Shown here piece after piece: positions 60-2,025 of a stretch of DNA of 2,691 bases. This DNA comes from a virus (taxonomy: Duplodnaviria > Heunggongvirae > Uroviricota > Caudoviricetes), in IMG/VR virus record IMGVR_UViG_2872185964_000012; one strand, given 5' to 3'. Position numbers and translations under genes: made by a program. The notes below the pieces were generated by a model that worked only from the letters and a program-made list of their open reading frames with translations, was not told the origin of the DNA and did no database searches. Each line of letters opens with the position of its first letter. Position 1 is the first letter of the stretch.

Positions 60-92
60 CTGGTTGTCTGGAGATTCTGGGGGCCAGTCTAG

Positions 93-635
93 TTGCATTT
101 AAAAAATATTACTGCGGGTAATCCGAAAACTGCGGAACAATACCAGATGACAAAAAAATATGATATTACCTAGCTTTTTTCGGAGGACGACAAAAACTGG
201 TATGAAGAACTGAAGAATTTCGCCAGCGACACAATTAAAATAGCTTACACCGGAGACGGGCGCGTGGTGTGGGTCGGTAAGGATGTGACAGGCATTGAAC
301 CCCGTAACGCCAGTGTTATTGAAGTTCCTGATATTACCGCCAACCGCCGCATTACCGCGCCGGGTTACTGGTTTTACCGCAATGATGAATTTGTCTTTGA
401 CTACAGACTCAAAGCGGAAGATGAGCGTGATGCCCTTCTGGCTCAGGTCAGAGCCCGGACAGGGGAATGGGAAGAAGACCTGCTGCTGGGGTTAATCAGC
501 GACGAAGATAAAGAAAAGCTGAAAGCCTGTCGTATTTACGCGAAATCGCTGCAGGCGATGGATTTCAGCACCATCACAGATAAAGCCACATATAACGCCA
601 TCAACTGGCCGGAGCGTCCCGATGCCGCAGCTTAA
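93..635 (+). pseudogene. tfa: Tail fibre assembly protein (Tfa, P2 G / Mu U / e14 TfaE-like), 5' end degenerate; only the C-terminal 123 codons (264-635) form an intact ORF
   Basis: Frame-3 translation from TTG 93 reads [42 protein letters not shown]...VIEVPDITANRR... This matches the conserved Tfa N-terminal signature as I recall it (MQHLKNI..NPKTKEQY..DGKNWYEE..VVEVPDIT.NRR). The codon before TTG is TAG (90-92) where homologues have ATG. An in-frame amber TAG sits at 171-173, at a position I recall as Trp in homologues. The frame is uninterrupted from 174 to the TAA at 633-635; the ORF track starts it at GTG 264. A G5 run (79-83) lies 9 nt upstream of TTG 93. Confidence 0.6.
611..614 (+). 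promoter_or_regulatory. Shine-Dalgarno (GGAG) for the side tail fibre gene
   Basis: GGAG at 611-614 lies 7 nt upstream of ATG 622, inside the 3' end of the upstream tfa (14-nt gene overlap). Confidence 0.5.
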
Positions 636-2025
636 AGGTGTGATTAAAACGCCCACGGGAGAACCGCTGGACGGCGCAACCATTACACTAACCTCCATAC
701 ACAACCGTGCAGGGATTCTGAAAAGTGTTTTCAGCCATGTCACCACACAGAACGGGAATATGACTTCCCCGTTCTGCCGGGTGTGTACAGCGTTCGCCTG
801 ACACAAAGCACACGGCGCCTTTCAGAAATCGGTGTCATCCGCGTTTATGAAGATTCAACGGACGGTTCGCTGAATGATTTTCTGGGCGCAACTAATATTG
901 ACCTGCGTCCGGAATCCCTGAAGAAATTCGAAGAGCTGGCGCAACAGGCGCAGCAGAGTGCCGGGAGCGCAGCCGGAAACGCACGGCAGACGGCGCAGGA
1001 TGTGACGGCAGCCGCAACGGCCCGTGATGATGCACAACGTTTTGCGGAGAAAGCCCGACAGGATGCAACCGTCACAGCTGAGAACAGAAAGGCCACTGCG
1101 GAAGATGTGACAAGCACAGGAGCAAATGCAGCCGCAGCCGGACAGAGCGCACAGGATGCCGCAGGTTATGCCCGCGCAGCAGAACAGGCCAAAAATGACA
1201 TTGATGCTGCGCTGACCGGCACTCTGAAAATGGCTAACCATCTGTCAGAAATCGCAGCAGCAGGCGAAAAGGCACAACAGAAGTCCCGGATAATCTGGGG
1301 CTGAAAAGTGCGGCCACGATGGAAGCACAGAGCGACATTTACGACCGGACAAAAGGCCGTCTGGCGATACCCGGCGCATTCGGCTTTGGGTGTGCTTTTC
1401 TGCCTGAAGATGTTATCCGTTTTGACACTAAGAGTGATTTCCTGGCCTGGGTAAGGAATGCGCTGCCAGGTGAATATTCCGTTGCTGGCCCTACGACATC
1501 ATCATACCCGACACACGGTTTGAAGGGGTGCTCAGCATCCGGTGGACTGATGCACGCCCTGAGACAACAGAACCGCGGTACAGAGCCAAATCCCTTACTT
1601 TTTACGGCATTAACGGCCCCATTTATCACACCCGCTACTGCTACTGGCCCATATCCAGACTGACTGGCTGGGTGAAAATAAATATAACCACAGAAGATAT
1701 TATTTACAGAATCGTGGCGAGCTCTGTCCGCAACAGATGGGGAGACCCTGACATTGGCGGGCTGATTATTGCTGCGTACCAGGGAGAAGCTGACGGTGAT
1801 AAAGTCATCAGACTTGTCAGGAGGCAGTCATACAGAGGCTCACGACTGGGACCGGTGGGGATCTCAGTGCCCAGTACTCCCACCGGAACGTATATAGCAT
1901 CCCCACAATTTTTCATTACGGGATGTTCAGAGCATTCATTACCGGGGTCATATTGCGCCCTGTCCGGGGTGCCGGATGCACATGTCTCTGGCGCAATGCC
2001 CGGGCTTTTTATTCGCACATCGTGA
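622..2025 (+). pseudogene. stf: Side tail fibre protein (lambda Stf-like), reading frame interrupted three times as sequenced (true pseudogene or single-base homopolymer miscalls)
   Basis: ATG 622 with GGAG RBS. Frame 1 (622-801) gives MPQLKGVIKTPTGEPLDGATITLTS..., resembling the lambda Stf N-terminus (MAVKISGVLKDGTGKPVQNCTIQLKA from memory). Frame 3 (open from 648; ORF 783-1304) gives ...YSVRL...IRVYEDSTDGSLNDFLGA..., matching lambda Stf ...YSVIL...ITVYEDSQPGTLNDFLGA, followed by an Ala/Gln/Thr-rich shaft. Frame 2 (open from 1238; ORF 1319-1663) gives PDNLGLKSAATMEAQSDIYDRTKGRLAIPGAFGFG... Frame 1 (open from 1474; ORF 1528-2025) continues to TGA 2023-2025. Each switch is a -1 shift, and each overlap interval (648-801, 1238-1304, 1474-1663) contains short G or C runs, e.g. 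GGG 754-756, CCC 1285-1287, CCC 1489-1491. Confidence 0.75.

Follow-up and report, generated by a model that had tools for sequence, protein, structure and literature searches.

The window, i.e., the whole stretch of 2,691 nucleotides that was analysed, is 100% identical to L004 5738-8428 of CP026872.1 (GCA_002950295.1), a Shigella chromosome of 4,711,198 bp. To judge from the names that identical proteins bear, the source is a Shigella, probably S. boydii or S. dysenteriae. The first 91 positions of the window (minus strand) are the end of an IS2 copy, a member of the IS3 family, the transposase of which is encoded on the minus strand upstream. There follow, on the plus strand, the remnant of a tfa gene (92-635; Caudo_TAP, PF02413), an Stf-like tail-fibre gene (622-2025; 'prophage tail fibre N-terminal domain-containing protein', with PF08400, PF13620, and PHROG 2636), and a DUF4376 gene (1976-2599; PF14301). 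A megablast comparison of the window with complete E. coli genomes returned collinear relatives at 94.8-98.2% identity, in which the gene order is tail fibre assembly, 'prophage tail fiber N-terminal domain-containing protein' (1407 or 1404 nt), DUF4376, and a convergent ipaH.

According to the list of open reading frames and a map of stop codons, the fibre gene passes from frame 1 (622-801) to frame 3 (783-1304), then to frame 2 (1319-1663), and back to frame 1 (1528-2025). Pairwise alignment with the E. coli VL40 gene, which is intact at 1407 nt (L001 3531-4937), showed each junction to be exactly one base short and the gene to be otherwise free of indels. At the shift from frame 1 to frame 3, a G is lost after position 753, leaving GGG (754-756) where all relatives have GGGG. 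The shift from frame 3 to frame 2 follows the loss of a G after 1287, in a GG (1288-1289) that makes CCCGG of the relatives' CCCGGG. The return from frame 2 to frame 1 is due to a C lost after 1488, with CCC (1489-1491) in place of CCCC. Putting the three bases back yields a protein of 468 aa. The original prediction, made from the letters of the window, had proposed a single Stf-like gene in four segments, broken by three -1 shifts in the same direction that could each be explained by one base lost from a G/C run. The collinear alignment to intact genes agrees on the first point, the single missing base per junction in the VL40 alignment on the second, and the position of all three sites within G/C runs on the third. 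Its proposed check, inserting one base per junction and comparing the result with intact homologues, indeed restored a continuous alignment over 468 aa. The candidate runs that it named were right for the first and third junctions, where the first-listed run (GGG 754-756 and CCC 1489-1491) is the affected one. For the second junction, none of its three candidates was correct, the true site being GG 1288-1289, which adjoins the listed CCC 1285-1287.

A fourth shortened run lies outside the fibre gene, at 2672-2675, where the window has GGGG and relatives have GGGGG. Owing to this drop, the small ORF starting at 2599 encodes 30 aa here and 59 aa in assemblies without it; the end of the window coincides with the false stop codon so created. 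L015 and L023 share this drop; in L020 the run has one extra G. Among the sibling long-contig assemblies, one (L015) also has the deletion at 1287. In the source, two of the deletions fall within a palindromic CCCGGG(G) context (window 1285-1289 and L004 ~2218-2223), and the recurrence at 1287 in L015 hints at a context-specific systematic error at such sequences.

The repaired protein is an ordinary Stf-like member of the PF08400 family, and the gene itself offers nothing biologically new. Residues 4-129 match PF08400 in Pfam (E=1.9e-29, 102.8 bits against a gathering cut-off of 26.6), PF13620 is matched as well, and residues 176-467 match the tail-fibre family PHROG 2636 (E=5e-199). A PDB sequence search found solved structures for the N-terminal part only (residues 3-187; the collar spike 7kjk and the tail fibre 9e7m), and no solved relative by sequence for the C-terminal half covered by PHROG 2636 (~230-468).

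Comparison with near-identical assemblies bears most directly on the origin of the breaks. Nine contigs of independent drafts, under different GCA accessions (L005-L013), match the window over 1.2-2.1 kb with no substitution or a single one, and share its tfa allele. At every stf site that they cover, all nine have the longer run; five span all three sites and four span the first two. In L005-L008 the whole ORF is present and encodes 468 aa identical to P0046, which is also exactly the translation of the repaired window, and this protein is on record as a 'MULTISPECIES ... [Shigella]' tail-fibre protein on 61 contigs. The closest draft (L010) differs from the window by three indels and no substitution in 1386 bp, which is the opposite of the ratio seen in normal divergence and favours an artefact. 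Every homologue reads through in a single frame over 467-468 aa. When the 114-aa frame-2 and 165-aa frame-1 fragments were looked up by exact match, none was on record, these having evidently not been called by the gene caller; the 59-aa and 173-aa frameshift fragments were therefore used for the counts instead, and each was found on one contig only, that of the source chromosome.

The same type of lesion is found elsewhere in the source assembly. About 4 kb upstream, the shortening of a GGGG run to GGG at L004 ~2221 breaks gyrA into pieces of 267 and 590 aa. Since gyrA is essential, the lesion disrupts a gene that cannot be inactive, which again favours an artefact. The 590-aa fragment occurs on 45 contigs of the protein collection, with the E. 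coli entry STG22768.1 among the matches listed, and this suggests that the error recurs in other assemblies too. Further single-base deletions in G/C runs were located at window 2671 (the fourth run described above) and at L004 8458, 9413 (inside ipaH), and 10816. Altogether, the source assembly shows eight single-base deletions and no insertion over the roughly 11 kb compared, all of them in G/C runs that are 3-7 bases long in the references; no deletion was found in the A/T runs of this stretch, though these are commoner and include A7 and T8.

Complete-chromosome contexts were reached by way of the truncated DUF4376 product. Sibling long-contig assemblies covering this locus (CP026866, CP026867, CP026842, and PTES01000002) have almost no substitutions, and L015, L018, L023, and L024 show in each case a different, in part recurrent, set of indels in homopolymers, which fragments stf, ipaH, a lactonase gene, and IS2 in differing ways. 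L024, for instance, lacks a C at the equivalent of window position 1901, giving 473 aa. Such a patchwork, differing from sibling to sibling, does not fit inheritance and is what would be expected of consensus noise. The first ~360 columns of the four-way MAFFT alignment, in which L018 has a different structure within the IS, are unreliable, and only later columns were used. L015 and L018 have one G fewer in the GGGGG run of the IS2 end (window 79-83). At L004 8514-9413, ipaH is called in the source as a 288-aa NEL fragment; the full 603-aa ORF is present only in L018, which has CCCCCC, and the source, L015, and L024 have CCCCC. The shorter run may be another recurrent undercall, in this case in a virulence gene.

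Other damage at the locus is genuine. The annotated IS2 of L003 can be aligned over its full length with L004 4497-5828, the last base of which is window position 91, so that the IS2 end abuts tfa and destroys its start codon. Codon-by-codon comparison with VL40 identified two nonsense mutations in the flanking genes. In tfa, which has lost its ATG to IS2, a G to A change at 172 creates W28* (TAG, 171-173). In the DUF4376 gene, which in VL40 encodes 207 aa and overlaps the end of stf by 50 nt, a G to T change at 2039 turns GAA into TAA (E22*, 2039-2041). GTG 2036 could be the true DUF4376 start instead of ATG 1976, in which case the E22 stop would fall at codon 2. For tfa W28*, the 123-aa product was traced to 31 contigs of independent Shigella assemblies; the truncated DUF4376 products are widespread in S. 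sonnei, S. flexneri, and S. boydii, with 83 contigs for the 121-aa form and 27 for the 125-aa form. When lesions are judged heritable by whether independently obtained sequences of the lineage reproduce them, tfa W28* and DUF4376 E22* recur, whereas the stf frameshifts do not. The IS2 truncation and the two nonsense mutations are real lesions. W28* marks the sub-lineage of the source; L015, L018, and L024 have TGG.

What is left of the prophage is a remnant of ~2.6 kb, tfa'-stf-DUF4376', beside ipaH. The source chromosome has rve/HTH_Tnp_1 and then gyrA upstream; the baseplate and first-fibre genes that precede the module in VL40 and RMDEC465 are absent, IS2 and gyrA lying directly upstream of the remnant, and the fibre gene of this chromosome does not lie in a complete tail or baseplate module that could use it. 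From this gene content, the repaired stf ORF would be intact but orphaned, contributing to no working virion and having no present function. The original prediction had left open a working receptor-binding fibre of roughly 468 aa. The length was right, but with the upstream part lost to IS2 and nonsense mutations in both neighbours, even a restored fibre would not be expected to work.

Taken together, we consider it highly probable (roughly 93%), from sequence comparison, that the three frame breaks are consensus errors of the CP026872.1 assembly, with one base dropped per short G/C run. Systematic homopolymer undercalling was one of the two alternatives offered by the original prediction, and it is borne out by the in-frame, near-identical assemblies, by the wide distribution of the repaired protein, and by the matching lesion in gyrA. 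An unpolished consensus of the long-read type would have dropped one base from each of three short G/C runs, and the gene in the organism would be a continuous Stf-like ORF of 468 codons. IS2 would have replaced the upstream part of the prophage, leaving the fibre ORF as a relic beside the ipaH effector gene. A literature search for accession CP026872 found no paper, and we therefore infer both the sequencing platform and the identity of the strain; the source would be a long-read assembly and the drafts short-read assemblies. The bias to G/C runs would fit older PacBio consensus sequences.

The other alternative, that of a true pseudogene in which the strain really lost one base per run by replication slippage as a cryptic prophage decayed, draws on the real degradation just described, the IS2 insertion, tfa W28*, and DUF4376 E22* being common to many assemblies. 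No plausible function is left in stf, so that selection would not purge frameshifts, and real slippage mutations likewise favour homopolymers. The deletion at 1287, common to the source and L015, could in principle be inherited rather than a recurrent error. However, the stf lesions taken as a set occur in only one assembly of a group of near-identical isolates, they amount to three indels against no substitutions relative to the nearest draft, and sibling assemblies show differing, random sets of such indels. The same assembly carries lesions of this type in the essential gyrA and in other flanking genes, and all eight events are deletions in G/C runs; a true pseudogene would require a separate explanation for gyrA and for the other lesions nearby. 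We regard this reading as improbable. Somewhat less probable still is that the deletions are real and stem from a tendency of the strain to shorten G/C runs by one base, as might be produced by, e.g., a defect in mismatch repair or polymerase proofreading that scatters -1 frameshifts over the whole genome.

Two further readings have next to no likelihood. That the breaks are put to biological use, through programmed ribosomal or transcriptional frameshifting or through slipped-strand phase variation that switches fibre expression, has nothing specific in its favour beyond the position of the shifts in homopolymers and the occasional variability of tail-fibre genes. Every relative is in a single frame, without a conserved shift site, and the tracts are only 3-5 nt long, far shorter than those of known contingency loci. 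Three successive shifts would all need to be bypassed, and the phage that would employ the fibre is gone; the in-frame homologues and the short tracts rule out this possibility. Equally slight is the chance that the segments are unrelated fragments instead of one interrupted gene, for which no support was found: the 1404-nt span is collinear with intact genes of 1407 and 1404 nt at 94.8-98.2% identity, with only three 1-nt gaps relative to VL40, and both PF08400 (4-129) and PHROG 2636 (176-467) fall within the repaired protein. The collinear alignment rules out this candidate.

If the breaks are consensus errors, as we consider highly probable, the locus matters only as a warning about data quality. 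In the stretch examined, the source and sibling assemblies have approximately one false G/C-run deletion per 1-2 kb; for the source, this local rate, if it applied throughout, would amount to some 10^3 such deletions in the genome as an order of magnitude. Many apparent pseudogenes in these assemblies, including the split gyrA and ipaH, would then be artefacts, and anyone counting pseudogenes in these records, or phage and virulence genes that seem 'inactivated', would arrive at too high a figure.

As regards known systems, the fibre gene resembles lambda-type stf genes in that the N-terminal 130 aa match PF08400 and the gene lies in a tail-fibre module beside Caudo_TAP and DUF4376 genes; parts of the region are ~81% identical in nucleotide sequence to the tail-fibre region of phiP27. 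It differs from lambda Stf in length, with 468 aa against 774 aa, and in its downstream partner, which is the DUF4376 protein instead of Tfa. Intact relatives carry the gene in a baseplate module of myovirus type (baseplate J, DUF2612), as its second fibre gene. The locus belongs with the well-known ipaH islands of Shigella and EIEC, prophage remnants with ipaH effector genes: in every relative examined, a convergent ipaH (NEL/LRR_TTSS) comes immediately after the fibre module, and in Shigella IS elements flank the module. Compared with other such islands, the present copy is in no way unusual, having been cut by IS2 to tfa'-stf-DUF4376'-ipaH, next to gyrA.

The split of stf itself is almost certainly not a real feature of the genome but a textbook long-read homopolymer artefact. 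Errors in long-read assemblies have been described as mostly homopolymer indels, mainly false deletions, which fragment genes (PMC12007338). The breaks reported here resemble those errors in being single-base false deletions in short homopolymers that turn genes into adjacent ORFs in shifted frames, in affecting essential genes, and in forming sets that differ between assemblies of near-identical genomes. They are unlike them in base composition: A/T runs were the most affected in that study, which concerned nanopore data (PMC12007338), whereas here only G/C runs of 3-7 bases are affected and long A/T runs (A7, T8) are correct.
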